From Gallionella sp. (GTDB lineage: Bacteria; Pseudomonadota; Gammaproteobacteria; Burkholderiales; Gallionellaceae), in assembly GCA_041739955.1 (NCBI GenBank), contig JBGSMU010000062.1, forward strand, positions 1-47,012: 47,012 bases of DNA, in the 5' to 3' direction. This document shows, piece after piece, positions 1 to 15,581 of this stretch (position 1 is its first letter; every line of letters begins with the position of its first letter). The notes under the pieces were generated by a model that saw nothing but the letters and a program-made list of their open reading frames with translations, was not told the DNA's origin and made no database searches. Made by a program: the position numbers and the translations under genes.

Positions 1-711
1 GATTTCGACAAAGGAGGGCAACTGCTCCATCACCTCCAGCTTCGCCACCCTTGCTCGATAGCCGATGTAGCTGTCACGTGCGGTGCTGATCTGTTTTGAC
101 AACGGCGCGATTTCTGCCGCAAGGCTGTCGAGCTTTTTATCGATCTCGATCAGTGTTGCCTGTGTCACACGTAGCTCCATATCCAGCTTGCTCAAACCTT
201 CCGGTAGAACGATCTCGCCATCGGCTGCCGCCATGGCGTTTGCCGCAGCCTGTGTTTCCGCTGCAATGCTCTGTTCCAGCTTTGCAATCTTTTGCACAAG
301 CTTGGTTTTGAGCGCGTTGGATTTTTCAAACTCGATCGACAAGGCTTGATCCTGCTGTGTCAGGCGCAGATATGCTTCCTTGGCTTCGGCCATTTGTGCT
401 GGCGCGATAACCTGACTGTGCAAGGGAGCGATTTGGTGTTGCAGTTCGCGCACTTTGCTTTGCGCTTGACGCATTTGATGCTCGGCATAATTGCGCGCGC
501 GGTTCAGGCTCTTTTCTCCGGCAGACCAGAATGACGAAGTGGAGCGTTCTTCCATTTCTCGATACGCTTTATTCTTCTCGGCGAAATCGGCTTCCGCTTC
601 CTTCTGTTCGTTAAGCGCGGCGTCGAGCTTGCGATCGAGTTCGTTGTATTCGGCCTGCAATTTGTCGAAATGACGGCCAAGCGATTTCTTGCGGAATGGA
701 TTGATTTTCAT
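1..711 (-). CDS. Coiled-coil hypothetical protein, C-terminus runs off the window (>237 aa)
   Basis: Absent from the ORF track because no stop lies in the window. Read by hand from ATG at 711 with SD AAGGA: MKINPFRKKSLGRHFDKLQAEYNELDRKLDAALNEQKEAEADFAEKNKAYREMEE..., open to position 1, A/E/K/Q/L heptad-rich. Confidence 0.85.
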   Translation of the reverse strand, partial: MKINPFRKKSLGRHFDKLQAEYNELDRKLDAALNEQKEAEADFAEKNKAYREMEERSTSSFWSAGEKSLNRARNYAEHQMRQAQSKVRELQHQIAPLHSQVIAPAQMAEAKEAYLRLTQQDQALSIEFEKSNALKTKLVQKIAKLEQSIAAETQAAANAMAAADGEIVLPEGLSKLDMELRVTQATLIEIDKKLDSLAAEIAPLSKQISTARDSYIGYRARVAKLEVMEQLPSFVEI

Positions 712-735
712 GTTTGATTCCTTTCGTTGGTTTGG

Positions 736-879
736 TTAATGGTTACGACGTAAACGGGCGAACTGCGGCCCGAAGGGTTGTGCTTGCCAGCGGTGTGTGG
801 CCCGCGCCGATTTGGCATTCAATTGCCGCCATGCATTCATCGGGCGGAATCTGCGTGAGTAATCAAAGCGCGTTCTCAC
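736..879 (-). CDS. Small Arg-rich basic peptide (47 aa)
   Basis: GTG start overlaps the upstream stop (GTGA) and follows GGAGG. Reads MRTRFDYSRRFRPMNAWRQLNAKSARATHRWQAQPFGPQFARLRRNH*, filling the gap before the coiled-coil gene. Confidence 0.6.
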   Translation of the reverse strand: MRTRFDYSRRFRPMNAWRQLNAKSARATHRWQAQPFGPQFARLRRNH

Positions 880-1451
880 GATTGACCTCCCGCACGCGGC
901 ACAGTCCGGAATTCGGCTGGGTAGCGCGCGTCACCGGGCAGCACCATGGTGGAAATCCAGGTGTGCCGACTGAGTTGCTTCTTGATCTCGACCACTGCGC
1001 CACTGGCAGGTCGATTCGGCGAAGCGGGAATCCATCCGCTATCGTCGAAGATCGCTTCGATTTGCGCAGGACTGAGCATTTTGTCTTGCGCTGGTGCGGG
1101 GCGATTTGATGCCTGCACAGTGATCGGACCGGTCAATGCTTCGACTACCGTTGAGACGGTTGGAACGGGAGCTTTCGCCTTCGGTGCGAGGTCGAAGTGC
1201 TTGGCCCAGATTGGATGCAGATTAGGGTTGTCAGTCATGCTGATCTCCATAGGTTTGCCACCCTCAGCGCCGGGTGGCGTGGCGTTTGACTCGATGAACG
1301 AATCAGATAAATTGAAATGACTGCACTCGTAAGTAATGCGATTCGCAGCATTCGCATCGGTGTGCGCAAGCGGCAAGCCAGATGCCACAAGGACATTCGC
1401 GGGATTCGCACGATTCGCAGCGGGGATAGATGGAATTGAGAAATTCATCAC
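876..1451 (-). CDS. Hypothetical protein; 5' part overlaps 9-bp-spaced iteron-like repeats
   Basis: Overlaps the DUF3987 stop by 4 nt. The ANRANPAN/ANAANR peptides are encoded by GCGAAT repeats. Confidence 0.55.
   Translation of the reverse strand: MMNFSIPSIPAANRANPANVLVASGLPLAHTDANAANRITYECSHFNLSDSFIESNATPPGAEGGKPMEISMTDNPNLHPIWAKHFDLAPKAKAPVPTVSTVVEALTGPITVQASNRPAPAQDKMLSPAQIEAIFDDSGWIPASPNRPASGAVVEIKKQLSRHTWISTMVLPGDARYPAEFRTVPRAGGQS
1341..1419. repeat. Iteron-like block, copy A (ATTCGC at 1341, 1350, 1395, 1404, 1413)
   Basis: Hexamers fall on a 9-bp lattice. An inverted ungapped copy lies at 4217-4295 (62/79 identical by hand alignment). Confidence 0.85.
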
Positions 1452-2920
1452 ACCGCCACCAGTTGATAGGCTTCACGTGCCGTTTTGTGTTCGGCTACAT
1501 CAACCCAGCCGTGAAGCTTCAGCACTTGCATCACACGTCGTGCTGCGCCTGCATTTCGAATTGCCGAGGGACCATTGCGATAGATGTCAGCCAGCGGTAT
1601 GGCACGACCCGGCCCCATCTTGTCGCGCAACCAATTGAGCACTTCCTGTGCAAGCTTTAATTCCACCGAAACCTGACCTGCACCCCATAAGCGCATGGCT
1701 TCGGCGAGGTAGTGCTTCATCAGCAGCGCAGCCCGATCAATGTGGTGTTCGTGGATGTTTGTGTCACCCTCGAAGACAGCGAACGTGCCCGCCATACGGG
1801 TGATGTGTTCCGGCGCTTTGGAAGCCAGTGAGCGAATCGGTGCCAGCGGGCCGCTGCCACCCAAGGAAGCTTCGATGTCGTTGTAGAGTGCAATCCACAC
1901 TCGCTTTGCGGTCGGTGTTAATACGATGTTGGGCGGATTGAGTTCATGTTCATTCACCAGCGGCCAATCCTGTATCAGCAATTCATTCACCCGTTCGGCG
2001 TAGGCTTGGTATTCAAGATTGCTACTCAGATCGGCTTCGACGTACTTGCGATTGCCAGCAGTTGATTTCGGATAGCTGATCAAGCAACGTGCCAGAAATC
2101 CCTGTTCGCGTGCCAGCGGATCAGCCAGCAGCATGGCAGCTACGGTGGGTTGCACCATGAGATGTAAGCTTAATCTGCGACCGTAGTAACTGCCGGAGCC
2201 ATCACCCACACGCACCCGGTCAAACTCGCCGCGATCCCAGAGACGTGACAGTGTGGTGAGTGTGCCCAGGCGCTTTTCTGCACTCATGGCATAGCCACCG
2301 AGGAATTGACCGCCTTCGTCATTGACTAGGCCAATCGATGGCAGACCGATGATCAGTTGGCGCTGGATGGCTTCGGTGCTGGGTTCGGATACGATGAACA
2401 GCGGCATCACCGGTGCAACGGGTTTCTCTATTTCATCGAGCTTGGCCTGCTTCGCTGTCGTGCTTAACTTCTTGTCAGCCAAGATGCGTTTGGCAGCGGC
2501 ATCGTAGACTTGTGCTGCCAGTTCATAGCTGTCACGGTCTATATCGAATTGCTGCATCAGCGTGCGCTGGTGCTGACGCACGCCTTGTAATGCCCAAGCA
2601 TCTGCCGCTGATTTACGCTCACCCGATTCACCCAGTGTTAGGAAGTAATCGGACAGCGGTGACACACGACCATCGATGATCACGTTGGCGTGAGGTTGTG
2701 AAACCTGATTCATAGCGGCGAGGATGGATTGCCCGATCAGGGCCATCGGCGCTTGAATCACTTCGTGCATCTTCTGCACGACACCCGCACCAAGGGGGCC
2801 GAGTGCATCCACTGGATAGGGTGTTGGTGGGTCGAGTTCGCGTGACAGCGGTAGCGGGTCGCTATGGTCAGCCAGTGCCCATGCGGGAGTCTGCACTTCA
2901 TGATTGTCGGCTGACTTCAT
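1448..2920 (-). CDS. YfjI/DUF3987-family ATPase (helicase-like replication protein of integrative elements)
   Basis: Walker A-like LGESGERKS, Walker B-like VNDEGG, GFLARCL, and C-terminal winged-helix-like IYRNGPSAIR. No N-terminal primase domain is evident. Confidence 0.85.
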   Translation of the reverse strand: MKSADNHEVQTPAWALADHSDPLPLSRELDPPTPYPVDALGPLGAGVVQKMHEVIQAPMALIGQSILAAMNQVSQPHANVIIDGRVSPLSDYFLTLGESGERKSAADAWALQGVRQHQRTLMQQFDIDRDSYELAAQVYDAAAKRILADKKLSTTAKQAKLDEIEKPVAPVMPLFIVSEPSTEAIQRQLIIGLPSIGLVNDEGGQFLGGYAMSAEKRLGTLTTLSRLWDRGEFDRVRVGDGSGSYYGRRLSLHLMVQPTVAAMLLADPLAREQGFLARCLISYPKSTAGNRKYVEADLSSNLEYQAYAERVNELLIQDWPLVNEHELNPPNIVLTPTAKRVWIALYNDIEASLGGSGPLAPIRSLASKAPEHITRMAGTFAVFEGDTNIHEHHIDRAALLMKHYLAEAMRLWGAGQVSVELKLAQEVLNWLRDKMGPGRAIPLADIYRNGPSAIRNAGAARRVMQVLKLHGWVDVAEHKTAREAYQLVAV

Positions 2921-3150
2921 GCCCGCCCCTTACCGGTTTGCGCAGCTATATGGGCATTGATAAAAAGTGAGATGTCTTGGCGGCGATAACGAATACAGCG
3001 ACCGACACGAACGAAAGGCAGATGAGGAATGCCACGTACACGCCAAGTGGCGAGTGTGGCCGGCTGAATGTTGAGAAGTTGCGCCGCTTCAGTTTCAGTG
3101 AGGAGGTTTTCCTCTATTTCACCGTGACGTCGAGATTGATTGATGCCCAT
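2917..3150 (-). CDS. Excisionase/AlpA-like helix-turn-helix protein (HTH_17/MerR-like)
   Basis: LLTETEAAQLLNIQPATLATWR...PFVRVGRCIRYR pattern; 4-nt overlap with the DUF3987 gene. Confidence 0.85.
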   Translation of the reverse strand: MGINQSRRHGEIEENLLTETEAAQLLNIQPATLATWRVRGIPHLPFVRVGRCIRYRRQDISLFINAHIAAQTGKGRA

Positions 3151-3231
3151 CTGGCTAAACTGCCTTTCATCGAGAGACGCATATCTGCGTCGATGAAGAT
3201 CAGCCTACAGAGAGGGCTTGGATGAATAGCG

Positions 3232-4194
3232 CTAAACGTCCGGAAGCTGTTGCAGCTTACGTTTCAGGCTGTCGGTGGCGATGGATCTTTCTATGTTTTT
3301 GTAGGTATCGATGTAAAACACACGATCATTAACGATGTCGGTGAAACGTATTCCCTGAACTTCGCCGTCGAAGTATTCCTCAATCATGTCGAGGATGACT
3401 GACAACTCGGTGCTTTCTGCTTCTTTGACGAGCTCCATCAAGGCTCGAGTGAGATGGCTCACCGCCCCTTGGCTGCGACCTTTGCGATACGGGGCCGCGA
3501 TGGCCGCTGCTGCACTTGCCTTGCGCCGCAGTGTGGCCATTTGGGATTCCGCTTTTTTGAGGGCGATTGCGGAAGTATTGGTGGCAAAACTGGCCATGAG
3601 CAGAAATTGCTCGGCGATGCCGGTTTGTTCGGCTGCGTCACGCCACAACACGCGTTCCCATCCTGCGAGTTCTGAACGCAACCAGCCGATGCTGTCCTCA
3701 TCATCGTGGCTGATGCTCGTCAGCTCCATATCCTCCTCGATGCCGGCGGCAATTTCGCAATACGTTTCTGCCGATCTGCGTGCCTCGTGAATGGAAAGCA
3801 GCGCGAAAATTTGTGCATCGGTCAGTGTAGGCGGCTCACCCGGAATGCGCGTCGTCCACAAACTGCGGGCGGCGATGACATAACTGCCATGCTGCTCGGC
3901 GTGCTGGTAGACAGCATCATGGGAGCGAGCCATGCCGAGGACAGCTTGCTGCACCCAGTCGGCGTTGGAAGATTCGGTTAGCGGTTCGAGGAAGGTGCGG
4001 GCGTTTTCTACAACGTGATCAAGCCGGTCAAATTCGGCGGTGAGTTGCGGCCACAGCCAGCAATGGTCATGAGTCAGGCGCAGATCATTGAGATCGCCCG
4101 TCAGCGCGTTGAATGGTTGCCGATCATCAATAGCATCACTCTCGTCCCCGGACGCATTGTCGTGTTGCTCATCGGATGATGGGATAGGGGCCAT
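3232..4194 (-). CDS. Hypothetical protein
   Basis: Long ORF (track start 4266). ATG 4194 (MAPIPSSD) is preferred because the upstream 72 nt overlap the repeat block. Confidence 0.7.
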   Translation of the reverse strand: MAPIPSSDEQHDNASGDESDAIDDRQPFNALTGDLNDLRLTHDHCWLWPQLTAEFDRLDHVVENARTFLEPLTESSNADWVQQAVLGMARSHDAVYQHAEQHGSYVIAARSLWTTRIPGEPPTLTDAQIFALLSIHEARRSAETYCEIAAGIEEDMELTSISHDDEDSIGWLRSELAGWERVLWRDAAEQTGIAEQFLLMASFATNTSAIALKKAESQMATLRRKASAAAAIAAPYRKGRSQGAVSHLTRALMELVKEAESTELSVILDMIEEYFDGEVQGIRFTDIVNDRVFYIDTYKNIERSIATDSLKRKLQQLPDV

Positions 4195-4216
4195 TTGCTG
4201 TTTTTGATTTGATGCT

Positions 4217-4320
4217 TGCGAATCGTGCGAATGCTGCGAAACTCCATATGCCGTATGGCTTTCCACGTGCGCACACTTATGCGAACCGTGCGAATGAAAT
4301 CAACTTTCGCATGATTCGCA
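4217..4320. repeat. Iteron-like block, copy B (GCGAA at 4218, 4227, 4236, 4281, 4290; inverted at 4305, 4314)
   Basis: Inverted imperfect copy of 1341-1419. Confidence 0.85.
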
Positions 4321-4366
4321 TAGGCATTTTACCTGAGCGAGATTTCAATAGCGGTATGGTGGCGAC

Positions 4367-5087
4367 AAGGGAGTCCAGATTATGGACATCCTTTTGCAAG
4401 TGCAGTCGGGTGCTGTTCCCAAGTTGAACACGACTGACGCAGACTGACGCATCTCCCGGTTAACTTCTCACGTGCGCACGTGTAGGGGTAAATCACTAAC
4501 TGTGTCAGCTGCGTCAGTGACTCATAAAATCATCGGGTTATGAATTGCAATTTCGGCGGAAGGTGTGTCACGTTACGTTACGTCCATGGGGTGGGGAAAC
4601 GGTCTGCGTAGTATGCAGACCCTTGGTGAAAGGGTGTCAGTTCAATTGACATCCTTGGGTGAATAATCGCTGATGACAAGGGTACGGAATTCAGTTCCGC
4701 TCCTTGCAATGGGTGTGAGTTGAACTCACTCCCTCACACGATTCGGTAGGTGCGTTCGCCGCTGGCACTTTTCTCCGACACAACGTTCATGCCGAGTTTC
4801 TTTTTGATTGCGCCTGAGATCGCGCCGCGCACGGTATGTGCCAGCCATCCGGTCGACTGCATGACCTGATTCACCGTGGCACCATTGGGACGTTGGAGCA
4901 TGGTGATTAGCGTTGCTTGTTTTGTGCCTGTGCGGATTGCGGAGGGGGTACCCATAGTACGGGTGCCCTCCAGATTTTGGAGGCCATCAAGGGTACGCAC
5001 ATTCCGCGTACCCTCAAGCTTCCGGCGGTCATCAGGGGCGTCAAAATTTTTGACATCCTCATGGGTGTCGTTATTGCCGACATCCTT
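4367..5087. repeat. Cluster of about ten 27-bp palindromic units, approximate consensus AAGGGTGT-N11-ACATCCTY
   Basis: Units at 4367-4393, 4598-4624, 4630-4656, 4678-4705 (28 nt), 4709-4735, 4944-4970, 4989-5015, 5034-5060 and 5061-5087. Weaker units at 4561-4587 and 4962-4988. Confidence 0.8.
4434..4517. other. Symmetric origin-like element: 2x CTGACGCA, central palindrome, 2x inverted TG(C/T)GTCAG
   Basis: CTGACGCA at 4434 and 4444; perfect 14-bp palindrome CACGTGCGCACGTG at 4469-4482; TGTGTCAG at 4501 and TGCGTCAG at 4510. The structure is seen directly; function is inferred. Confidence 0.55.
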
Positions 5088-5312
5088 CGGCACTGAACGC
5101 TCTCTGCCAACGGCCGCATAGCCAACATCTGTCAGCAGATAATTGTCGTCGTCATGGCTAACGAGTCCCTTGGCCAGCAAGCCATCGATGACAGCGGTGC
5201 GCGCGCCACCGCGTAGTTTACTTGGCAACGGTTCGATGTCGCCGTCGATGCGCTCGGCAGCGGCTTCGAGGACAGTGGTTTGTGTGGCCGTTAGTTTGAG
5301 CTTGGTGGTCAT
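4734..5312 (-). CDS. DUF3489 domain-containing protein (winged-helix-like)
   Basis: C-terminal TKQATLITMLQRPNGATVNQVMQSTGWLAHTVRGAISGAIKKKLG...RTYRI and N-terminal LRGGARTAVIDGLLAKGLV. Confidence 0.85.
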   Translation of the reverse strand: MTTKLKLTATQTTVLEAAAERIDGDIEPLPSKLRGGARTAVIDGLLAKGLVSHDDDNYLLTDVGYAAVGRERSVPKDVGNNDTHEDVKNFDAPDDRRKLEGTRNVRTLDGLQNLEGTRTMGTPSAIRTGTKQATLITMLQRPNGATVNQVMQSTGWLAHTVRGAISGAIKKKLGMNVVSEKSASGERTYRIV

Positions 5313-5337
5313 GTCATTCTCCCGCTAGATGAGGTGA

Positions 5338-5559
5338 TTAATGTTGTGCGGCGATTTCAGCTTCGTTAGCCTTCGGCATTTGCAGACCCGCTTCGCAGCC
5401 AGCTATGAAGGCGGCGTGTAAGGCTTCCTTGAGTCTCCACACCGCGATGTCGTGGAAATCCAAGCTGTCGCCGTGGCGGGTTTCAAGGGTTTCGATGTCC
5501 ATGTGTTTTTTGGCGATCAGGGTCAGGATGTTGTCGAGGGTGTTGGTGTTGGTGTTCAT
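5338..5559 (-). CDS. DUF6900-like small protein
   Basis: IAKKHMDIETLETRHGDSLDFHDIAVWRLKEALHAAF signature; SD GAGGAG; usual neighbour of DUF3489. Confidence 0.75.
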   Translation of the reverse strand: MNTNTNTLDNILTLIAKKHMDIETLETRHGDSLDFHDIAVWRLKEALHAAFIAGCEAGLQMPKANEAEIAAQH

Positions 5560-5586
5560 TTTTTTGTGCTCCTCAAATTTTGTGGA

Positions 5587-5790
5587 TCAAATCATCTCGT
5601 AACCGGCGCGTTCTAGGCGTTGCGCATCAGCCGGTGTGACTACCCAGTATTCGCCGCTTTCGCCGTCGTTGTCGCCAAGCACCACCCAGTGGGGTTTGAC
5701 GCAGTGGTCGGCGTAGCTGCTGGCCAGCGCTGGGTTGCGGAACACCGCAATGTGCCCTTTGACTAATTTTTTGATCTGTTCGTTTAACAT
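5587..5790 (-). CDS. Small hypothetical protein (67 aa)
   Basis: ATG 5790 (MLNEQIKK) follows GGGAG; first gene of the DUF6900-DUF3489 unit. Confidence 0.65.
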   Translation of the reverse strand: MLNEQIKKLVKGHIAVFRNPALASSYADHCVKPHWVVLGDNDGESGEYWVVTPADAQRLERAGYEMI

Positions 5791-5990
5791 TTTGTTCTCC
5801 CGCGATGTTGTTGATGACGGTGACATGAACGCTCTGTTCGATGTAGAAGGCAAGTTATTAATCGCAATTATTCTCAAATTTGAGCATCGCGGTACCAGCA
5901 AAAAAATAGCAGACTTTTTCTGCTGATTCTCGTTATCTATATACTTCGGTCTATCCAAACTTATCTCGCACTGTGCTACCCTGACGCCCC

Positions 5991-8138
5991 ATGAAATCAG
6001 CCAATGAAGCCTTCTCCCGCGTCATCATCGACAGCCAACTTACAGCACAAAGATGGAGCTTGGTTGACGGTTTCAGCGTTCGTTACGAAGTAGTGTTGGA
6101 AGACGGCACACGCGCAGACTACGTGTTGTGTGATCGGCATGGTCGCTCGTTGGCAGTGGTTGAAGCGAAGCGTTTTTCAGTCAGTCCAGGTGATGCCGCC
6201 GAGCAAGCAAAAAATTACGCCAAGCAACTCAACGTTCCCTACATCTTTCTCGCCAACGGTAACGAGATTCAGTTTTGGGAATGGCAGCGCGAAGCATACC
6301 CGCGCCCCGTTAAAACCTTCTTCAAGCAAGACGACATCGAGCGTCGTTTCGCCACCCTGCAAGTCGCACGCAAACCGTTGTCCGTACCTATTGATGTGAA
6401 GATCGCTGGACGCGACTATCAGCAGGAATGTAACCAGACTCTGTGCGAAGCGATCCAATTAGGCAAACGTAAACTGCTGGTCGAAATGGCGACCGGTACA
6501 GGTAAAACACGCACCGCCGCCGCGCTCATCAAGCGACTGTTTGAAGCGAATGCCGTTACTCGCGTCTTGTTCCTAGTGGATCGCATCCCACTGGCGTTGC
6601 AGACTGAGGATGCCTTTGCCGAGCATCTGCCGGATTACCCGTCGTATGTGTTGCGCGCCGGTCGACGCTTTCAAGATGAGAAGCGCATCACTATCACCAC
6701 GCTGCAAAGCATGATTAACATCTACGGCGAATACTCAGCCGGATATTTTGATCTCATCATCTCGGACGAATGCCACCGCAGCATCTACGGCAAGTGGAGC
6801 GGCGTGCTTAAACATTTTGACGGCATTCAAATCGGCCTCACGGCTACGCCTTGTATCGGTGGCGAGGATGCTGCCACGGGCGATGAAGACGACAAGTTGT
6901 TCGTGAAGGACACTCTCAAATTCTTCGAGGTAGATAAGCCCACCTTCAGCTACAAGCTGAAAGATGCCATCAGCGATGGCTACCTCGTGCCGTACCAGAT
7001 ATACAAAGCCAAGACCGTGAAGACCGCTGCCGAAGGTGGCTTCGAAGTTAAGCGCGACGAACTCGACTGGTCGGCAATGAATGACAAAACCAAGCAGGAA
7101 TTTGAAGCACTGTTCAAAGATTCCAACTCGGTAATGATTGACCCGAACGCACTGGAACGCCGATTCACCATCCCCGAGCGTAACCGTGCCTTGGTGCGTG
7201 AATTCCGTCAGGTGATGGATAACGGCTACATCGATCACAAAGGCATCCAGCGCAAACCGCTACTCGGCAAGACCATCGTGTTTGCTGTGACCAAGCGTCA
7301 TGCCGAAACACTGGCGCAGATGTTTGATGAAGCCTTTGCCGATCAGAAGTCCTCACCCGATGTGCGCTATGCCGACTACGTGGTTTCCGGCATGGGGCCA
7401 GATGACACCGTGGACGCGATGAGCAAGATCAAGCGTTTCAAGAAAGAGAAATTCCCGCAGATATTGGTATCGGTGAACATGCTCGATACCGGTTTCGATT
7501 GCCCGGAAGTCAATAATCTGGTGTTCGCCCGTTTCACCAAATCCGTCATTTTGTATCAGCAGATGCGCGGTCGCGGCACACGCAAAGCGCAGAATAAACC
7601 ACTGTTTACTATGTTCGACTTTGTGGGTGTGGCGGACTATCACGGCGATGATGATGGTTATGCGCAAGGCGGATTTATTGGCGTGAAAACCCCGCCGAAA
7701 AAACCTTACGAACCGCGCCGCCTGTTGTCGCTAGACATCGATGACCATATTGATCCGGCTACCCGCGAATGGGTAACGATTGATGAGGATGGCAATTTTG
7801 TATTTCCTGAAGCATCGGAACAAAAAGCCAACGAAATCGGCGCTAAATTCGAGGCGTGGTTAATCTCACGTATCGACTTCAATCCGGCACAAGAAAATCT
7901 CCTGCGTGTCGTCGGCAGTCAAATACGTGCTAACGCCGAGACATGGGACGAATTCACCAGCGACCATTTCGCGCTACCGATCTTCAGTTCGCAGGGCGGC
8001 TATCAGAATGCGTTACGTGTCTTCGGCGGCAAGGCGCAACTGGATGAAGTGATGGAAAGCCTCAATGCCAACGTATTCCAGTCAGATACAGATTCACGTC
8101 AATCCGATGCGTCGGATCATCACGTCAACATGCAGTAA
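5991..8138 (+). CDS. hsdR: Type I restriction enzyme R subunit (EcoAI/EcoEI-like)
   Basis: Nuclease motif RADYVL...VVEAKR; helicase motifs MATGTGKT, DECH, LTAT, LDTGFD, QMRGRGTR. Confidence 0.95.
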   Translation: MKSANEAFSRVIIDSQLTAQRWSLVDGFSVRYEVVLEDGTRADYVLCDRHGRSLAVVEAKRFSVSPGDAAEQAKNYAKQLNVPYIFLANGNEIQFWEWQREAYPRPVKTFFKQDDIERRFATLQVARKPLSVPIDVKIAGRDYQQECNQTLCEAIQLGKRKLLVEMATGTGKTRTAAALIKRLFEANAVTRVLFLVDRIPLALQTEDAFAEHLPDYPSYVLRAGRRFQDEKRITITTLQSMINIYGEYSAGYFDLIISDECHRSIYGKWSGVLKHFDGIQIGLTATPCIGGEDAATGDEDDKLFVKDTLKFFEVDKPTFSYKLKDAISDGYLVPYQIYKAKTVKTAAEGGFEVKRDELDWSAMNDKTKQEFEALFKDSNSVMIDPNALERRFTIPERNRALVREFRQVMDNGYIDHKGIQRKPLLGKTIVFAVTKRHAETLAQMFDEAFADQKSSPDVRYADYVVSGMGPDDTVDAMSKIKRFKKEKFPQILVSVNMLDTGFDCPEVNNLVFARFTKSVILYQQMRGRGTRKAQNKPLFTMFDFVGVADYHGDDDGYAQGGFIGVKTPPKKPYEPRRLLSLDIDDHIDPATREWVTIDEDGNFVFPEASEQKANEIGAKFEAWLISRIDFNPAQENLLRVVGSQIRANAETWDEFTSDHFALPIFSSQGGYQNALRVFGGKAQLDEVMESLNANVFQSDTDSRQSDASDHHVNMQ

Positions 8139-8165
8139 CTTGCATCACCACAGAAAGTACCTGCA

Positions 8166-9791
8166 ATGCCTTTAACTCCTGAAATGCGCCAGTCCATCGA
8201 GCAGATACGCAACTACCTTTACGGTGGCGGCTACCCTGATCCGATGAGCAATGCCGAACAACTTTCCTTCCTGTTTTTCTTCTACCTCATCGAAGGTATT
8301 GATGCCGAGAACACCATGAAGGCCAAGGTGATGAAGCAGAAATACGAATCTTTGTTCGCTGGGGAATGGACATTGCGCAACCCGCTCAATGCGCCAGAGG
8401 CCAATGCCACGACCATCGACAAATCTCGTTTCAAGTGGTCAGTGTGGGCCAAGGGCTTGAGCGGCGAAGCACTGGTGCGCTTTGTACGCGATGAAGTATT
8501 CCCGTTCTTTGCGGAAGTGGCAGAGCGTTCCGCTTTCAACTTTATGAATGGTGCGCGTCTCACTATTGATGAACCGACCGTATTGAGCCAAGTGGTTAAT
8601 CTGGTGGATGGATTGCACCTCGATCAATCGGATGCCGACACCAAAGGCGACTTGTTCGAGCATGTGTTACGCCAGATTAAACAGGCGGGTGAACTCGGCC
8701 AGTTCCGCACGCCGCGTCACGTCATTCGCGCCATCGTGGACATGCTTGATCCCAAGATTGGCGAAACGATTTATGACCCGGCAGCAGGTACGGCAGGATT
8801 TTTAGCGGCGGCATTCAATCATATTCGCTTAACCAATTCATCACCGAGCGGAATCAGCGAAACCGAAGTCGAAGGCAAGCTGCAAAAGCGTGGCATTGGC
8901 GACAAGCTATCAGCCGCCCAAGTTTCCGTGCTGCAAAACAGCACCTTCTACGGCAATGACGTTGACCCCAAGATGGTGCGCCTCGCCACCATGAACCTCA
9001 CCCTGCGCGGTCTGCCCAATGTGCGTATCCAACTGCGCAATGGCTTGACCACTACACAAGACAACGAACGCAAAGCTGAATTGGGTTTGCCGCTTGAGGG
9101 CTATCACGTTGTGCTGGCGAATCCGCCGTTCTCAGGCCGCGTGGATAAAGACCGCATCGTGGACGAAGTGAAGGTAGGCACCAGCACTTCCACCGAAATC
9201 TTGTTCTTGAAATACATGATGGATTGTTTGCGACCCGGTGGTCGTTGCGGCGTCATCATTCCCGAAGGGGTGCTGTTCGGTTCAACAGGTGCGCACAAGG
9301 AATTGCGTCGTCAGTTGATCGAGAACAACACCGTCGAGGCGGTGATGTCATTGCCGGGTGGCGTGTTCCAGCCGTATTCCGGCGTGAAGACATCCGTTCT
9401 ATTTTTCCGCAAAGGTGGCACGACCGACAAGGTGATGTTCCTGCATGCCGATAACGACGGCTATAAGCTGGATGCCAATCACGATACGTCCATTGAGGCG
9501 GATGATCTACCGATGCTGGCTGATGCCTACCTCACCCGTAAAGAACGCTGGGCGGAATGGTCAGCGCGGGATGCCGCAGCTGAGTGGACGCAACAATGGT
9601 GGTTTGCTGACGCAGCAACTTTGCGCAGTAATGACTTCAATCTTTCTGCGGGACGTTTTCGCCCAATGAGCCAGACAGCGGCAATACATCGCGATCCGCG
9701 TGAGCTACTGGATGAACTGGCGGCGATTGAAACCGAGATTGCCGAGGAAGTGGAAGCATTGCGCACGGTGCTGGTGGAGCAGGCTGCATGA
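8166..9791 (+). CDS. hsdM: Type I R-M N6-adenine methyltransferase M subunit
   Basis: GQFRTPR, DPAAGTAGF (SAM binding), LANPPF (catalytic), IIPEGVLF. Confidence 0.95.
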   Translation: MPLTPEMRQSIEQIRNYLYGGGYPDPMSNAEQLSFLFFFYLIEGIDAENTMKAKVMKQKYESLFAGEWTLRNPLNAPEANATTIDKSRFKWSVWAKGLSGEALVRFVRDEVFPFFAEVAERSAFNFMNGARLTIDEPTVLSQVVNLVDGLHLDQSDADTKGDLFEHVLRQIKQAGELGQFRTPRHVIRAIVDMLDPKIGETIYDPAAGTAGFLAAAFNHIRLTNSSPSGISETEVEGKLQKRGIGDKLSAAQVSVLQNSTFYGNDVDPKMVRLATMNLTLRGLPNVRIQLRNGLTTTQDNERKAELGLPLEGYHVVLANPPFSGRVDKDRIVDEVKVGTSTSTEILFLKYMMDCLRPGGRCGVIIPEGVLFGSTGAHKELRRQLIENNTVEAVMSLPGGVFQPYSGVKTSVLFFRKGGTTDKVMFLHADNDGYKLDANHDTSIEADDLPMLADAYLTRKERWAEWSARDAAAEWTQQWWFADAATLRSNDFNLSAGRFRPMSQTAAIHRDPRELLDELAAIETEIAEEVEALRTVLVEQAA

Positions 9792-10912
9792 GCCAGTGGC
9801 CGACCGCTCCTCTGGGCACAGCCATTGAGTTGGCCTATGGCAAGAGCTTGCCAAAGGGTAGCCGTGTGGAAGGGGGCAGCATCCCTGTCTATGGTTCAAA
9901 TGGAATAACAGGCTGGCACGATGCGGCGGTGGTCGATGGTCCAACAGTGATTGTCGGCCGTAAAGGTAGTGCCGGGGCTGTGCAGTTCGTTGATGGCCCC
10001 TGCTTTCCGATTGATACTACCTACTATGCCTGCCAGCGTCAGGGTTTCGATTTCGACATCAAGTTCCTGTATTACCAGCTTCGACAACTCGACCTCTCTC
10101 GCTTGAAAACCGCAACTGGAGTGCCCGGTCTTACGAGGGAAGACGCTTATAGGGAGACGATTGCAGTTCCACCAATCCACGAACAACAACGCATTGTGGA
10201 CATCCTCGCCCGTGCAGAGGGCATCGTGCGGTTGCGGCGCGATGCAGATAAAAAAGCAGCCGAGTTGATCCCTGCATTATTCCTCGAAATGTTTGGTGAT
10301 CCGGCGACGAATCAGAAGGGATGGCCTGCCGCACCTCTTGGCGACCTGTGCGATGTTAAAGGTGGAGGGACTCCATCCAAGCAAAATCCAGCTTTCTGGA
10401 TTGGAGAAATTCCGTGGGTTTCACCAAAGGATATGAGTGGTGTTGAAGTTATTAAAGATGCGGAAGACCACATTTCTGTAGATGCGGTGAAAAGCAGTGC
10501 AACAAACTTGATCCCGGTGGATTCGGTTTTAATCGTTACCCGAAGCGGGGTACTCAAGCACACAATCCCTTGTGCAATTACGTCGAGAGTGGTTGCCATC
10601 AATCAGGACATAAAAGCTTTTGTGCCGCGCAAGGAAATTGCGCCGCATTTCCTTTTGTCTCAACTCCAAATTCGCGCGAAGGAAATTCTTGGTTTGGTTC
10701 GTGTTGGTGCGACTGTTCAGAACATTGAAACGGAAGCTCTGAAGCGCATGCGTTTCATTTATCCTAGCTTGGATGTGCAAGTTAAGTTTAGCGAGAAGTG
10801 TGAGCAAATTCGCTCCATCCAATCTCAACAATCCACGGCTACCACGATGGCTCAAGCAACTTTCGACGCGTTACTGTCTCAGGTGTTTGCTAAAACAAAA
10901 AATATGGGCTAG
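9788..10912 (+). CDS. hsdS: Type I R-M specificity subunit
   Basis: Two TRDs with conserved regions (PPIHEQQRIV, LFLEMFGDP, YPSLDVQ..F); ATGA overlap with hsdM. Confidence 0.95.
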   Translation: MSQWPTAPLGTAIELAYGKSLPKGSRVEGGSIPVYGSNGITGWHDAAVVDGPTVIVGRKGSAGAVQFVDGPCFPIDTTYYACQRQGFDFDIKFLYYQLRQLDLSRLKTATGVPGLTREDAYRETIAVPPIHEQQRIVDILARAEGIVRLRRDADKKAAELIPALFLEMFGDPATNQKGWPAAPLGDLCDVKGGGTPSKQNPAFWIGEIPWVSPKDMSGVEVIKDAEDHISVDAVKSSATNLIPVDSVLIVTRSGVLKHTIPCAITSRVVAINQDIKAFVPRKEIAPHFLLSQLQIRAKEILGLVRVGATVQNIETEALKRMRFIYPSLDVQVKFSEKCEQIRSIQSQQSTATTMAQATFDALLSQVFAKTKNMG

Positions 10913-10939
10913 TTTGCTCTAATAACCGGGGAGGGATTT

Positions 10940-11440
10940 ATGTGTTGGTTCAGCAGAAAAGAAAAGAGCAAACCTACGTTTGCCGTTCCCGAATGGGCAG
11001 TATCCCATCCAGCTTGGGTTCGTCTTGAGGATCAAATTGGTTGGTATGACAACAAAAGCGTCCATTGCCAGAACTGGTACAAGCGACTTAAGTTTGTTCA
11101 GATCAGTCTTGCCGTGCTGATTCCAGTATTCAGTCAACTTGATCCAGTATGTGCAAAATGGGTTGTTTCGATTGCCGGGGTGACGATTGCGATACTGGAG
11201 GGTATGCAGCATTTGAATCAATATTCGACGTTATGGTTTACTTATCGCGCCACCGCAGAGCGACTGAAACATGAGAAATATCTCTTCCTTTCCGCTGCGG
11301 GTCCGTACAAGGGGCAAGTTGATCAAGAACGCCTTGTCGCCCTTGCCGAACGGGTTGAGGAACATGTTTCAACTGAGCATGCAAACTGGTTCAATGAAAC
11401 TAGGCGTGCTGTTTCTATACAGAAGCAAGAGGGGAAGTAA
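10940..11440 (+). CDS. SLATT-family (DUF4231) two-transmembrane protein, candidate defence effector
   Basis: RLEDQIGWYDNKS, two hydrophobic helices, and W.TYRATAERLKHEKYLF signature; SD GGGAGGG. Confidence 0.85.
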   Translation: MCWFSRKEKSKPTFAVPEWAVSHPAWVRLEDQIGWYDNKSVHCQNWYKRLKFVQISLAVLIPVFSQLDPVCAKWVVSIAGVTIAILEGMQHLNQYSTLWFTYRATAERLKHEKYLFLSAAGPYKGQVDQERLVALAERVEEHVSTEHANWFNETRRAVSIQKQEGK

Positions 11441-12423
11441 TGGCAATAGCCAGACCTAAGGAAATTGACATCGGCACGGTCCGTTTGCCAACGCCAATAT
11501 TCTTTCCATCCATTTCAACCATCAAGACAGCACTATCGCCAGCGCAATATCTTGCAGCACTGCATTCTCTACGTGATTTAAATAAGCAGTTTCTGGTGTC
11601 AGCGTTTGATTTAAGTCGTTCAGGCGATGGTGATGGACTGGCGCAATGTTTAATTGCAGCCCAAGCAGCGGGTGTGACGGTGCTGATGGATTCCGGTAAC
11701 TACGAAAGCTATTGGAAAGATGAGCAGTCGGATTGGAGACAGGCAGATTTTCATGATGTACTGAAACGATTCTCCTGCTCTTTCGCTTTCGGTTTCGATG
11801 AGCAGAATCCACCGGCGGATGAAGATACTCATGTAAAACTGGTCGTCGAACGTTGGCAGCGTGATCAGAGCGCAGCCGGGAAACGAGTAATCGTGCCAAT
11901 CGTGCATGGAACAGCTGAGACCCTACCAAATTTGTGCGCACGTATCGCGCAAGAAACACAGGTGCCGATGATTGCAGTAGCTGAACGACGGCTTGGTGAT
12001 GGTGTGTTCGAGCGTACCCGGTCGGTGATATCTCTACGAGAGAAACTTGATGGCACTGGGCGCTACGTCGGTTTGCATCTTTTAGGGACGGGTAATCCAA
12101 CCTCGATTGCGCTCTACTCATGGGCAGGGGCAGATAGTTTCGATGGACTGGAATGGTGTCAGACAGCAGTCGACCATGATACTGGCCAGTTGTTTCACCT
12201 TTCACAATCAGATTTTTTTCGCAAGCAAACCGCATGGGGCGATGAAGACATCTCATTTCATTCCCGCACCTTGGCGCACAATTTGACATTTTACGCGGAC
12301 TGGATGCAACGCTTACGCCAAGCTGTTTATGACGATAACGTGATAAATTTCTGCCGCTTAAACTTCTCGCCGCGTATATTTCGCCAATGCGCAGTAGCAT
12401 TTAAATGGGAGGTAGCCGAATGA
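11440..12423 (+). CDS. tRNA-guanine transglycosylase (TGT)-fold protein, Cap10-like
   Basis: LPTPIFFP, VLMDSGNY, PIVHG, HLLGTGNP, GADSFDG, LAHNL motifs; no CxCxxC zinc site; TAATG overlap with SLATT. Confidence 0.85.
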   Translation: MAIARPKEIDIGTVRLPTPIFFPSISTIKTALSPAQYLAALHSLRDLNKQFLVSAFDLSRSGDGDGLAQCLIAAQAAGVTVLMDSGNYESYWKDEQSDWRQADFHDVLKRFSCSFAFGFDEQNPPADEDTHVKLVVERWQRDQSAAGKRVIVPIVHGTAETLPNLCARIAQETQVPMIAVAERRLGDGVFERTRSVISLREKLDGTGRYVGLHLLGTGNPTSIALYSWAGADSFDGLEWCQTAVDHDTGQLFHLSQSDFFRKQTAWGDEDISFHSRTLAHNLTFYADWMQRLRQAVYDDNVINFCRLNFSPRIFRQCAVAFKWEVAE

Positions 12424-13121
12424 ATATGACCGCTGTTGATCGGACGATTCGTGTGTTGTGTGCCGATGTTAAAAGCAGTGCTCAAAAGGTGTTGGACTGG
12501 CAATTGCACACAGAGGAAGAATTGCTACACGAGGCTTGCGTCTGCATGTTCAGTAGCCAAATGGTGTTTGAGGTTGCAGAGGCAGCAGCGCAGCGAATCA
12601 AGGATCGTGGGTTGCTTAAGGCTACGACATCAAAGGATTATGAACAACGCCTTGTGGCGGTCTTGGGCGAGCCGCTCGATTTTGAGCGGGACGGCAAAAT
12701 ACGGCATGCTCGTCCCCGCTTTAAAAATCGCTTGGCATCTCTGCTTTCTACCACAGTAAAAACGATGCGTATTCAGGGACAGTCTCTGCGGGATACCTTG
12801 TTTTCAGCCAGTTCGGCACGAGAGGCCAGAGAGCTTTTGGTTCAGCAGGTGTGGGGGTTTGGCCCAAAGCAAGCAAGCCTTTTTCTACGTCGAGTGGGCT
12901 ATTGTGCCGAGCTGGCTGTGTTAGATACACACATCCTGGATTACCTTCGCGTTGCTCGTGGCCTTGACCCAAAACCTAGCGCATTGTCGCGGCTAGAGAG
13001 CTATGAGCGTATCGAAGTTGAATTTCAAAAGGTCGCAGAGGAATTTGGCCACTCTGTCGGTTGTGTTGACCTAGCAATGTGGGTAACGATGCGCGTCGCG
13101 AAACGGGAGGCGATTTGGTGA
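12420..13121 (+). CDS. HhH N-glycosylase/DNA lyase (8-oxoguanine glycosylase OGG-like), Cap11-like
   Basis: ARELLVQQVWGFGPKQASLFLRRVG (HhH with catalytic Lys), LAVLDTHIL (catalytic Asp), C-terminal DLAMW; ATGA overlap and SD GGGAGG. Confidence 0.85.
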   Translation: MNMTAVDRTIRVLCADVKSSAQKVLDWQLHTEEELLHEACVCMFSSQMVFEVAEAAAQRIKDRGLLKATTSKDYEQRLVAVLGEPLDFERDGKIRHARPRFKNRLASLLSTTVKTMRIQGQSLRDTLFSASSAREARELLVQQVWGFGPKQASLFLRRVGYCAELAVLDTHILDYLRVARGLDPKPSALSRLESYERIEVEFQKVAEEFGHSVGCVDLAMWVTMRVAKREAIW

Positions 13122-13711
13122 GTCTGGTTAATTTGGTATCCGGCGGGCTAGATTCGACTTTGGTCGGCGTGATGGCCAGAGAAGAAGGTTTGACCGTGCA
13201 TCCGCTGTTCATTGATTACGGACAACGTGCCAGCCAGAAGGAGTGGGATACCTGCCAGCGTGTGCATTCGCAGTTGGGCTTGCCTGCCCCGACCCGAATG
13301 GATTTATCTGGATTTGGCAAGGTGATTCATTCTGGTCTGACATCTGTTGAGATGGATGTGAAAGCGGAAGCCTTTACGCCAGGTCGCAATCTGATGTTCT
13401 TGTTGATGGGTAGCGCCTATGCCTATCAGGTGGGCGCGTCCTCGGTATCGGTCGGGTTACTTGCTGAACGGTTTAGCTTGTTCCCAGATCAGCAGCCAGA
13501 ATTTATTAAACAGGCAGAACGCGCAATCGAAGCGGCGCTAGGCCGTCGAATCAAGGTTGTGACGCCGCTTGCTGAATTCAGTAAAGCTGACGTCGTCTTG
13601 CTGGCTCAGAAGAAATGGATAACGGGAACGTACTCTTGCCATATGGGGGGCAGTGAGCCTTGCGGAAAGTGCATTTCATGTCTTGAATTTGATCTTGGTG
13701 ACGGAGGATAA
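13118..13711 (+). CDS. QueC-like (7-cyano-7-deazaguanine synthase family) PP-loop ATPase, Cap9-like
   Basis: SGGLDS PP-loop, IDYGQR, PGRNLMFL, FPD, and zinc motif TYSCHMGGSEPCGKCISC. GTG start at 13118 (GTGA overlap) follows GGGAGG. Confidence 0.92.
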   Translation: MSLVNLVSGGLDSTLVGVMAREEGLTVHPLFIDYGQRASQKEWDTCQRVHSQLGLPAPTRMDLSGFGKVIHSGLTSVEMDVKAEAFTPGRNLMFLLMGSAYAYQVGASSVSVGLLAERFSLFPDQQPEFIKQAERAIEAALGRRIKVVTPLAEFSKADVVLLAQKKWITGTYSCHMGGSEPCGKCISCLEFDLGDGG

Positions 13712-13712
13712 A

Positions 13713-14213
13713 ATGGGCGGTGGATCTGGTGGTGGTATTCCAAGTGCTGACTGGGCGAGGCTTGAAGCCAAGGCAAAACAAACGCTCACAGAATCAACAA
13801 CCGATACGAGCCGACACGTATTCATCAGTTTTGCCTATGAGGATGTTGACGAGGTCAATCTGCTTCGCGGACAAGCAAAAAATGACAAAACTGATTTGCA
13901 GTTCGACGATTTTTCAGTCAAGGAAGCCTATGACAGTGAGAATGCAGACTATATCAAACGACAAATCAGGGATCGCATAGACCGTTGTTCAGTTACCGTC
14001 GTTTACCTCACAGACAATACTGCGTCGAGTAGTTGGGCGAATTGGGAAATCGAGGAAAGTCTAAAGCGCGGCAAGGGTGTGATTGGAGTCTATAAAGGTG
14101 ATAGCCAACCTGCAAAGACACCGCCAGCATTTCAGCAGAATAATTGTAAGGCAGTGAAGTGGGAGCACGCCGCTCTAATGAACGCAATTAATGATGCAAA
14201 TGCAAATCGATAA
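13713..14213 (+). CDS. TIR-domain protein (ThsB/DUF1863-like) with N-terminal Gly-rich extension
   Basis: ATG 13713 follows GGAGG, 1 nt after the QueC stop. MGGGSGGG N-terminus; RHVFISF, CSVTVVYL and SSWANWEIEES (catalytic Glu) motifs. Confidence 0.9.
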   Translation: MGGGSGGGIPSADWARLEAKAKQTLTESTTDTSRHVFISFAYEDVDEVNLLRGQAKNDKTDLQFDDFSVKEAYDSENADYIKRQIRDRIDRCSVTVVYLTDNTASSSWANWEIEESLKRGKGVIGVYKGDSQPAKTPPAFQQNNCKAVKWEHAALMNAINDANANR

Positions 14214-14232
14214 CGCTAGATAACCTAGCCTC

Positions 14233-15210
14233 ATGCCAGTTTATCTGCCCACTTATTTCTCTGCTCGCTCTGCCAAAGAAGCTATAACTGCTTGTTGGCA
14301 GATTTGTTCTACAGATGGCGTAGTTGACGTTGATGCTAGTCAGTTGATTTTTGCTGATCCGTTCGGAATGACTCTGCTGGCAGCCACATTTCATAAAGTT
14401 CGCGAACAGAATGGTGTCGTTCGTGTGCATCATCTCAACGGACAATTGAGCTGCTATTTGCAGCGCATGGATGTCTTTCAAGGTGTTGAGTTGGTTGACT
14501 GTGCTCCGACGCAAGGACAGCGGCATGATCGCGCTGATGCATTGATGGAGGTAACTCGACTTGAACGACAGGCTGATATTGGTAACGCAGCTCACCGCCT
14601 TACTACTGCATTAGTCGGGAAAATGCCCGTGGCGAATCGCGATGAGTTGCCAGATGAAATGTCTGGTTACACAGAGTCAGATCGCTTGGCCGAACCTATT
14701 CAGTACGCTCTGAATGAACTTTTGGAAAACGCGCTAACCCATGCTCGGCGTGCGTGATACATAAATGCCTGTGTGTGGTTGTCCAGTCAATACTATCCAT
14801 CGAATGGTTTGATTCGCGTGGGCGTGGTTGATAACGGTTGCGGCTTTTTGGCCACCTTGCGAGGTCATGCGGCATTACATCAGGAGACTCATTTAGCCGC
14901 CATTCTTGCTGCATTGCAACCACGCGTAAGTTGTAATCGTGATTTAGGATTGCGCTCGGATTCGGTCAATCAGGGGGTAGGTCTTACCACTACCCGCAGA
15001 ATTGCAGAAACTGCCGGGGGGCGTTTATATATTGCGAGTGGCGATGCAATTCACAGTGCTGCTTCATCTAGCCATTTGGCTGGCGGCGCATGTTGGCAAG
15101 GTGTCGCAATTGCATTGGAGTGCAAACGAAAAAAATTGCCCGAAGTTCACTATCGCGATCTACTGCCGCCAATAGATGCAAAACCTACAGTCAAGTTGCG
15201 CTTTCAATGA
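14233..15210 (+). pseudogene. STAS-like plus HATPase_c (GHKL/anti-sigma-kinase-like) protein interrupted by one in-frame TGA at 14755-14757
   Basis: ORFs 14233-14757 and 14773-15210 share a frame. The N-box ELLENALTHA precedes the stop; G1 VVDNGCGF and G2 NQGVGL follow it. Confidence 0.8.
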
Positions 15211-15269
15211 AATGCAGTTATCTTGTCAAGGCTGGCCTGCTACATCTATATGAGGTTAGTCAAAAAATT

Positions 15270-15581
15270 ATGAATACCCAAATACTTTTGAATCAACATG
15301 CACACGGCCACTTGGTCGGTTCGCGCTTGGCTGCAGCCCCGCTTCGCGAGGATTTGGAAGTGGCATTGGCGCAGCAAGGTGCGGAAGTCGTTCTGGACTT
15401 TTCAGGCATTACAGCCACTCAATCTTTTGTAGATGAGTTAGTCGGTGTGCTTGTCTTGCGCCATGGGCCGGATGTGTTGGCACGAATTATTTTCAAAGGT
15501 TGTTCGGACGATGTGCGTGCAATCATCGAGTTTGTTGCTGCCGACCGTTGCGATCAGTATCTCAAAGCACACTCGCACTAG
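15270..15581 (+). CDS. STAS-like DUF4325 family protein
   Basis: GSRLAAAPLR...VVLDFSGITATQSFVDELVG signature; usual partner of such HATPases. ATG 15270 preferred over 15090. Confidence 0.8.
   Translation: MNTQILLNQHAHGHLVGSRLAAAPLREDLEVALAQQGAEVVLDFSGITATQSFVDELVGVLVLRHGPDVLARIIFKGCSDDVRAIIEFVAADRCDQYLKAHSH

Follow-up and report, generated by a model that had tools for sequence, protein, structure and literature searches.

In type IV CBASS, Cap9 joins 7-carboxy-7-deazaguanine (CDG) to Gly2 of the CD-NTase CdnD, adding 176 Da; helix 1 of CdnD is held in a Cap9 cleft marked by M29, L104 and S135, and the modified tail is bound by Cap10 with D73, S74, D122, K154, H226 and D248 (Wassarman et al., bioRxiv 10.1101/2025.04.06.647259). 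The N-terminal motif published there for the CD-NTases is M(G/S)G(G/S)GG, and that preprint agrees with what a preliminary description of the DNA studied here had stated, namely that CdnD Gly2 is the Cap9 acceptor and that Cap10 binds the modified tail. In qatABCD, a QueC-family enzyme, QatC, also has a partner, QatB, whose N-terminal Gly2 is essential and whose Gly tail lies in the QueC-family pocket (PMC13279940, PMC13376578, PMC13639016). The parallel with QatC/QatB, likewise drawn in the preliminary description, is confirmed by these papers, according to which the CDG chemistry could not be reconstituted and the NDG adduct is seen at the peptide level only (PMC13376578, PMC13639016).

Type VII Thoeris consists of ThsB and a SLATT effector, ThsH, with cADPR as the signal, and Thoeris operons with cap9, cap10 and cap11 have also been found (Yirmiya et al., bioRxiv 10.64898/2025.12.03.692087, Fig. 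6G, S10B). As described in the preprint, these operons combine a TIR and an effector with cap9, cap10 and cap11, the CD-NTase being absent; AF3 predicts that the TIR binds Cap9 (ipTM 0.62) and Cap10 (0.79) as the CD-NTase does, and a similar mechanism is suggested.

We analysed a stretch of 47,012 nucleotides from Gallionella sp. (contig JBGSMU010000062.1), hereafter the window, in which five overlapping or abutting genes occupy positions 10940-14213 in the order SLATT-TGT-OGG-QueC-TIR, the TIR gene being the last. The features concerned are the following.

10940-11440, + strand: SLATT two-TM protein, predicted effector (NF033634 SLATT_1, 117 bits, cut-off 41; DUF4231)
11440-12423, + strand: TGT/Cap10-like protein (best PDB match Cap10 9NTN, E 1.3e-4; PADLOC TGT, E 4e-24)
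12420-13121, + strand: OGG/Cap11-like glycosylase (Pfam Ogg-HhH, E 1.5e-23; likely start 12420, not 12405)
13118-13711, + strand: QueC/Cap9-like enzyme (SGGLDS, PGRN, FPDQ, Zn-binding Cys; GTG start with a strong Shine-Dalgarno sequence)
13703-13707, + strand: Shine-Dalgarno sequence GGAGG, inside the 3' end of queC, 5 nt ahead of the TIR ATG
13713-13736, + strand: M-GGGSGGG tail, with Gly2 (13716-13718) as the predicted NDG acceptor
13743-13802, + strand: predicted helix, residues 11-30 (AlphaFold2), predicted QueC-docking element
13812-14213, + strand: ThsB-type TIR core (Pfam ThsB_TIR, E 3e-22; catalytic Glu112 at 14046-14048)

The TIR protein, of 166 aa, is ThsB-like by Pfam, by PADLOC and by PDB sequence and fold (8FZ9; ThsB 6LHY/9B7D), and its catalytic Glu112 is kept in 120 of 120 homologues. 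AlphaFold2 predicts a TIR fold preceded by a disordered tail (pLDDT <50) and a helix of residues 11-30, with a mean pLDDT of 84 for the protein; sequence and model thus both point to a flexible tail with Gly at position 2. With a ThsB-type TIR carrying the Glu, three cap-like genes, an effector and a predicted TIR-Cap9 interaction, the operon has the traits of the Thoeris operons with cap9, cap10 and cap11, and no difference in kind from them is demonstrable; the passages of the preprint that describe them contain no alignment of N-terminal motifs, no counts and no experiment on these operons. A ThsB-type TIR and a SLATT effector are common to the window and type VII Thoeris, to which the window adds three ancillary genes and the tail. 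With type IV CBASS (PDB 9NTN, 9NTO) it has in common the QueC/TGT/OGG-like trio and a Met-Gly-Gly substrate followed by a docking helix, and most catalytic residues are kept. It differs in having a TIR in place of the CD-NTase and the consensus MGG[GS]xG in place of M(G/S)G(G/S)GG; none of the 11 proteins scanned over positions 5991-15581 belongs to a CD-NTase or nucleotidyltransferase family. As in type IV CBASS, OGG can be missing: one TIR locus (L081) has SLATT-TGT-QueC-TIR with OGG cleanly lost from the row. The qatABCD system is different again, in that QatC has ~400 aa and a remodelled pocket, its partner starts MGTS, and TGT, OGG and TIR are lacking.

Elsewhere in the host genome lie queD and queE as well as canonical copies of queC and tgt. 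The G+C content is 49% here as against 54% for the genome. Positions 1-10912, ahead of the operon, contain genes that look like those of a mobile element, together with a type I restriction-modification locus, and 32 of 83 related loci likewise have a type I methylase-like gene beside them. No tRNA was found in the window. Downstream, on the + strand, a STAS plus HATPase-like gene at 14233-15210 forms one frame with an internal TAA (14755-14757) and is either a broken gene or an assembly error; a DUF4325 STAS gene is next. These STAS/HATPase genes were rejected as members of the system, with no match in 83 related loci. An OGG start at 12405, which would give MGGSRM and hence a second acceptor, was also rejected because it has no Shine-Dalgarno sequence, the GGGAGG in the 12405-12423 region serving the ATG at 12420 (SD energy +0.3 for 12405 vs -11.6 for 12420).

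Read directly from the sequence, the queC stop TAA (13709-13711) is followed by the TIR ATG at 13713-13715. Translation from this ATG gives MGGGSGGGIPSADWARLEAKAKQTLTESTTDTSRHVFISF, with 33 residues before R34; the N-terminus of the protein, MGGGSGGGIPSADWARLEAKAKQ, runs on into the RHVFISF strand after these 33 residues. The start at 13713 with Shine-Dalgarno support and an M-GGGSGGG beginning, as read in the preliminary description, is therefore borne out by the GGAGG and by the translation; the extension before the TIR beta-A strand is also present, its exact length being 33 rather than the ~32 residues given there. That description had itself named 13653 as a possible true start. We consider it very improbable that the TIR starts at this GTG, or that the Gly run is a chance low-complexity linker. 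The GTG, which begins the mechanically called ORF, falls in the last 59 nt of queC, and its pairing with the anti-SD sequence is weaker (-7.8 kcal/mol, against -9.5 kcal/mol for 13713, both duplex energies computed with an assumed anti-SD sequence). It is true that the ORF is open from 13653, that at least 20 open codons precede the tail in 36 of the 67 homologous loci, and that one of 120 database homologues is annotated with an upstream extension of this kind. However, an in-frame stop lies at most 20 codons upstream of the tail start in 30 of the 67 distinct homologous loci (31 before one mis-called row, L121, was corrected; 82 of 91 loci fitted the search pattern, and 67 were left after removal of duplicates), so a longer start cannot be general. 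On the grounds of these stops and of the Shine-Dalgarno energies, we rejected 13653 as the TIR start. A purine-rich SD-like sequence is also found upstream of the tail in the related loci inspected.

A beginning of this type is rare in the genome: among its 1049 ATG starts with Shine-Dalgarno support, 34 give MG and just two give MG[GS][GS], namely the TIR gene at 13713 and a hydrophobic MGGGLL protein, which argues against a chance run. Moreover, all four Gly codons are in use for Gly2 and Gly3 across the 67 loci, indicating that conservation acts at the protein level. At position 5, the MGGGSG of the TIR departs from the strict CD-NTase motif M(G/S)G(G/S)GG and so does not fit it.

The motif is nonetheless kept in the form MGG[G/S]xG, the start of 116 of the 120 closest TIR homologues, two more of which have the tail behind a longer annotated start; the strict CBASS motif fits 19 of the 120. 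Conservation of the Gly motif in QueC-linked homologues, on which the preliminary description had made its proposal depend, is thus found. The comparison with ordinary TIRs that it had suggested points the same way: among 150 representatives of more distant TIRs (50% clustering; 71 rows were fragments or unclassifiable), Gly2 is present in 32 of the 39 with an extension of 28-52 residues, compared with none of the 40 short ones. Even where the remaining tail diverges, Gly is kept at the extreme N-terminus (MGSRF, MGRTG, MGVSW).

Our results also indicate that the tail goes together with the ancillary genes. Related loci (n = 82) were taken from metagenomes and viral contigs, and the 80 metagenome loci are the best 80 of 578, that is, the closest ones, so they are related rather than independent. 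Within this set, 80 loci have a tail starting with ATG, one has a tail starting with TTG and one is cut off; QueC lies directly upstream in 77 of the 80 ATG-tailed loci, and the other three have <215 nt of upstream sequence. QueC, TGT and OGG occur together with the TIR in 61 of these 82 loci, many of the rest being incomplete, and a SLATT match occurs in 52 of the 82, some of which are incomplete; SLATT is absent from several related loci. In one locus (L114), QueC and the tailed TIR are present, and the 4.3 kb upstream gave no match to TGT or OGG. An even sampling of the phylum (401 genomes) gave 47 matches, of which 30 loci were retrieved, the window itself being one of the 30. Among these, all three tailed TIR loci other than our own adjoin QueC and OGG, and all 26 untailed TIR loci are without a QueC, TGT or OGG match within 1.5 kb on each side. 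The tail is also absent from second TIRs at two related loci (L012 and L014) and from the TGT-fused TIR in L142-L144.

The last of these belong to a second subgroup, seen in L004, L008, L009 and L142-L144, in which an untailed TIR domain is followed, within one fused protein of 430-490 aa, by a Cap10-like TGT; in L008 and L009 the divergently transcribed neighbours are annotated as TRAF-binding-domain and PfkB proteins. The untailed TIRs closest to ours, P0279 and P0294, gave no viral locus, and the best plasmid matches were tailed Rhizobiaceae TIRs. Other tail-bearing partners of Cap10-like genes were sought in 953 genome searches across three phyla; apart from TIR-linked loci, these yielded a single type IV CBASS (L140), a fragment and four weak matches. 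The two weak matches inspected (L130, L134) contain a different TGT type, in which a TGT-like gene stands beside an uncharacterised gene of ~330-390 aa, with no QueC or TIR in the stretch fetched. With the PADLOC type IV CBASS TGT model, four of the five matches in the 401 genomes are TIR-linked, our own genome included, and none is CBASS; the TIR version may therefore be commoner than the CBASS version in this phylum.

In the alignment, S18/D22/S23, R86, Y115 and D117 of Cap9 correspond to S8/D12/S13, R90, F122 and D124 of the window QueC, which accordingly has the Cap9-type SxGxDS, the Arg and the aromatic/Asp residues that read the base. SGG[LV]DS and FPDQ are found in 54 of 54 QueC rows, the SGG.DS count following from the way in which rows were selected. 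FPDQ stands in place of the canonical YPDC, and the score against TIGR00364 is 135.2 bits, under the cut-off of 150.3. In phmmer comparisons the enzyme matches canonical QueC with an E of 7.5e-24 and Cap9, less closely, with an E of 3e-14, and the QatC model matches it with an E of only 0.005. In a tree of 63 QueC sequences, there is support for three groups, made up of the 19 TIR-linked, the five CBASS and the 39 canonical rows, respectively, with TIR-linked QueC (FPDQ in 19 of 19) and CBASS Cap9 as separate clades, both on one side of the canonical group. Six canonical loci had been dropped by the extraction pattern, and the program warns of long branches meeting; this tree therefore does not demonstrate that TIR-linked QueC and Cap9 share an origin.

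The window TGT, ~25% identical to Bacillus Cap10, keeps D84, S85, D120, H213 and D235, and has Val at the position of Cap10 Lys154. The pattern recurs in 119 TGT homologues, in which Cap10 D73, S74, D122, H226 and D248 are kept in 119, 119, 119, 119 and 118 cases, respectively; none of the 119 has anything but Val or Ile at the Lys154 position, and His156 never varies. This His aligns with the Gln of GIVQG in the canonical TGT of the genome, a base-reading residue of canonical TGT, and it may replace Cap10 Lys154. As judged from the alignments, QueC and TGT retain most of the active-site residues of Cap9 and Cap10.

Because FPDQ replaces YPDC and the clade stands apart from that of Cap9, the attached base could differ. 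It would thus be conceivable that Gly2 is the acceptor, and that the group attached is not the CDG-derived NDG, or is added only once the cell is infected, which is also the suspicion for QatC/QatB. The separate long-branch clade with its constant FPDQ, the missing Lys154 of the TGT and the inactivity of QatC with CDG in vitro reported in two papers (PMC13376578, PMC13639016) speak for this alternative; by analogy, the qatABCD precedent is the main caution against reading the modification as NDG. We nevertheless regard it as unlikely, as the aromatic/Asp pair with which Cap9 reads the base is kept as F122/D124, unlike QatC, which has two Thr, and the TGT His156, at the position of the GIVQG Gln, may substitute for the Lys.

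As the preliminary description had proposed, we modelled the complex of QueC, with ATP and Zn, and the TIR after Met removal; three controls were run alongside. The QueC-TIR model scored 0.87 and the best control 0.00, on a scale whose mark is attained by 116 of 157 solved pairs and by 2 of 215 mismatched ones, figures that are only roughly valid here; likeness to the solved Cap9-CdnD complex may raise the QueC-TIR score. Model runs have at least 56% of contacts in common, and the partner pLDDT is at least 73. On the TIR side the confident contacts are residues 13-31, that is, the helix; on the QueC side they include M19 and S109, the aligned counterparts of M29 and L104 in the CdnD cleft of Cap9, whereas the third cleft residue (Cap9 S135, QueC G142) is absent from the listed contacts. 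The N-terminal helix of the TIR is thus predicted to dock on a QueC surface that matches the CdnD-binding surface of Cap9. As the Gly tail makes no confident contact, the model backs docking rather than chemistry.

The confinement of confident contacts to the helix would also be compatible with a non-covalent role, in which tail and helix only bind QueC or TGT, as a scaffold or inhibitor, and QueC and TGT modify nucleic acid or make free base. The closer phmmer relationship of this QueC to canonical QueC than to Cap9 could be read in the same way. We consider this quite unlikely: Gly is kept at the very N-terminus where the other tail residues diverge, the genome already has its own canonical queC and tgt, and the best solved match of the TGT is Cap10.

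The preliminary description had further seen the Gly-rich peptide as a portable tag grafted onto a TIR, and this stands in part. An architecture of tail plus helix is common to these TIRs and the type IV CD-NTases: among 120 relatives of the latter, 100 start with MG, 68 fit the strict motif and 73 fit MGG[GS]xG, and some Bacillus type IV CD-NTases run on with IPSKTLSQLE, resembling the IPSADWARLE of the window TIR. However, the predicted docking element is the helix and not the Gly run, and the TIR helix cannot be shown to be homologous to helix 1 of the CD-NTases (HHalign probability 7.6%). Of 84 CD-NTase helices, 24 scored above the 95th percentile of shuffled sequences; this control takes no account of helical periodicity. 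Convergence or old divergence therefore fits as well as grafting.

Taken together, the tracking of the tail with QueC, TGT and OGG, the retention of catalytic residues and the docking of the helix on a Cap9-like surface support the reading of the preliminary description that TIR Gly2 is the likely acceptor for the adjacent QueC. We put the probability that QueC deazaguanylates this N-terminus at roughly three in four, on the basis of sequence, modelling and analogy with Cap9. Removal of Met before Gly is established N-terminal processing, and the TIR would lose Met1 and expose Gly2. CDG would be supplied by the host, whose genome has queD and queE, and QueC, docked on the helix of residues 11-30, would activate it with AMP and form the amide at Gly2 (NDG), as Cap9 does. 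The TGT-like protein would then bind the modified tail and control TIR activity, and during infection it could possibly pass the tagged TIR on to a target. Once active upon infection, the TIR would produce an ADPR-type signal, which may be the cADPR of the SLATT-linked type VII Thoeris, and this signal would trigger the SLATT effector.

It would be tempting to go further and to see in the ~30-residue Gly tail and first helix a self-contained tag with QueC and TGT subfamilies of its own (marked by FPDQ and by His156 for Lys154), such that on infection TGT would use the NDG base to link the TIR by a covalent bond to nucleic acid of the phage or the host, leading to clustering and activation, and OGG would remove the TIR again. 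This idea is speculative, and we think it rather doubtful. If it were true, incorporation into nucleic acid would be what activates the TIR, and a small TIR system could reveal the acceptor of type IV CBASS.

That a TIR would constitute a new class of substrate, as claimed in the preliminary description, does not hold: the pairing of a TIR with Cap9 and Cap10 has already been predicted in the preprint of Yirmiya et al. (bioRxiv 10.64898/2025.12.03.692087), so the idea is not new. A literature search, largely confined to papers outside subscription, found no bench test of TIR deazaguanylation. The present analysis adds counts that tie the tail to QueC, points to the helix as the element predicted to dock, and sets the QueC and TGT apart as subfamilies of their own, though the figures and supplements of the preprint may list the layout or the tail motif.

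The TIR version may also be common, given that four of the five PADLOC matches are TIR-linked. Since its TIR is small and its likely output can be measured by LC-MS, the question of what Cap10 transfers the tagged enzyme to would become more testable. Should the modification be confirmed, CD-NTase and TIR, which are unrelated enzymes of immune signalling, would both be subject to deazaguanylation, making it a general layer of control over two such enzymes at least; the Cap2/Cap3 layer, already seen on both, would be its parallel.
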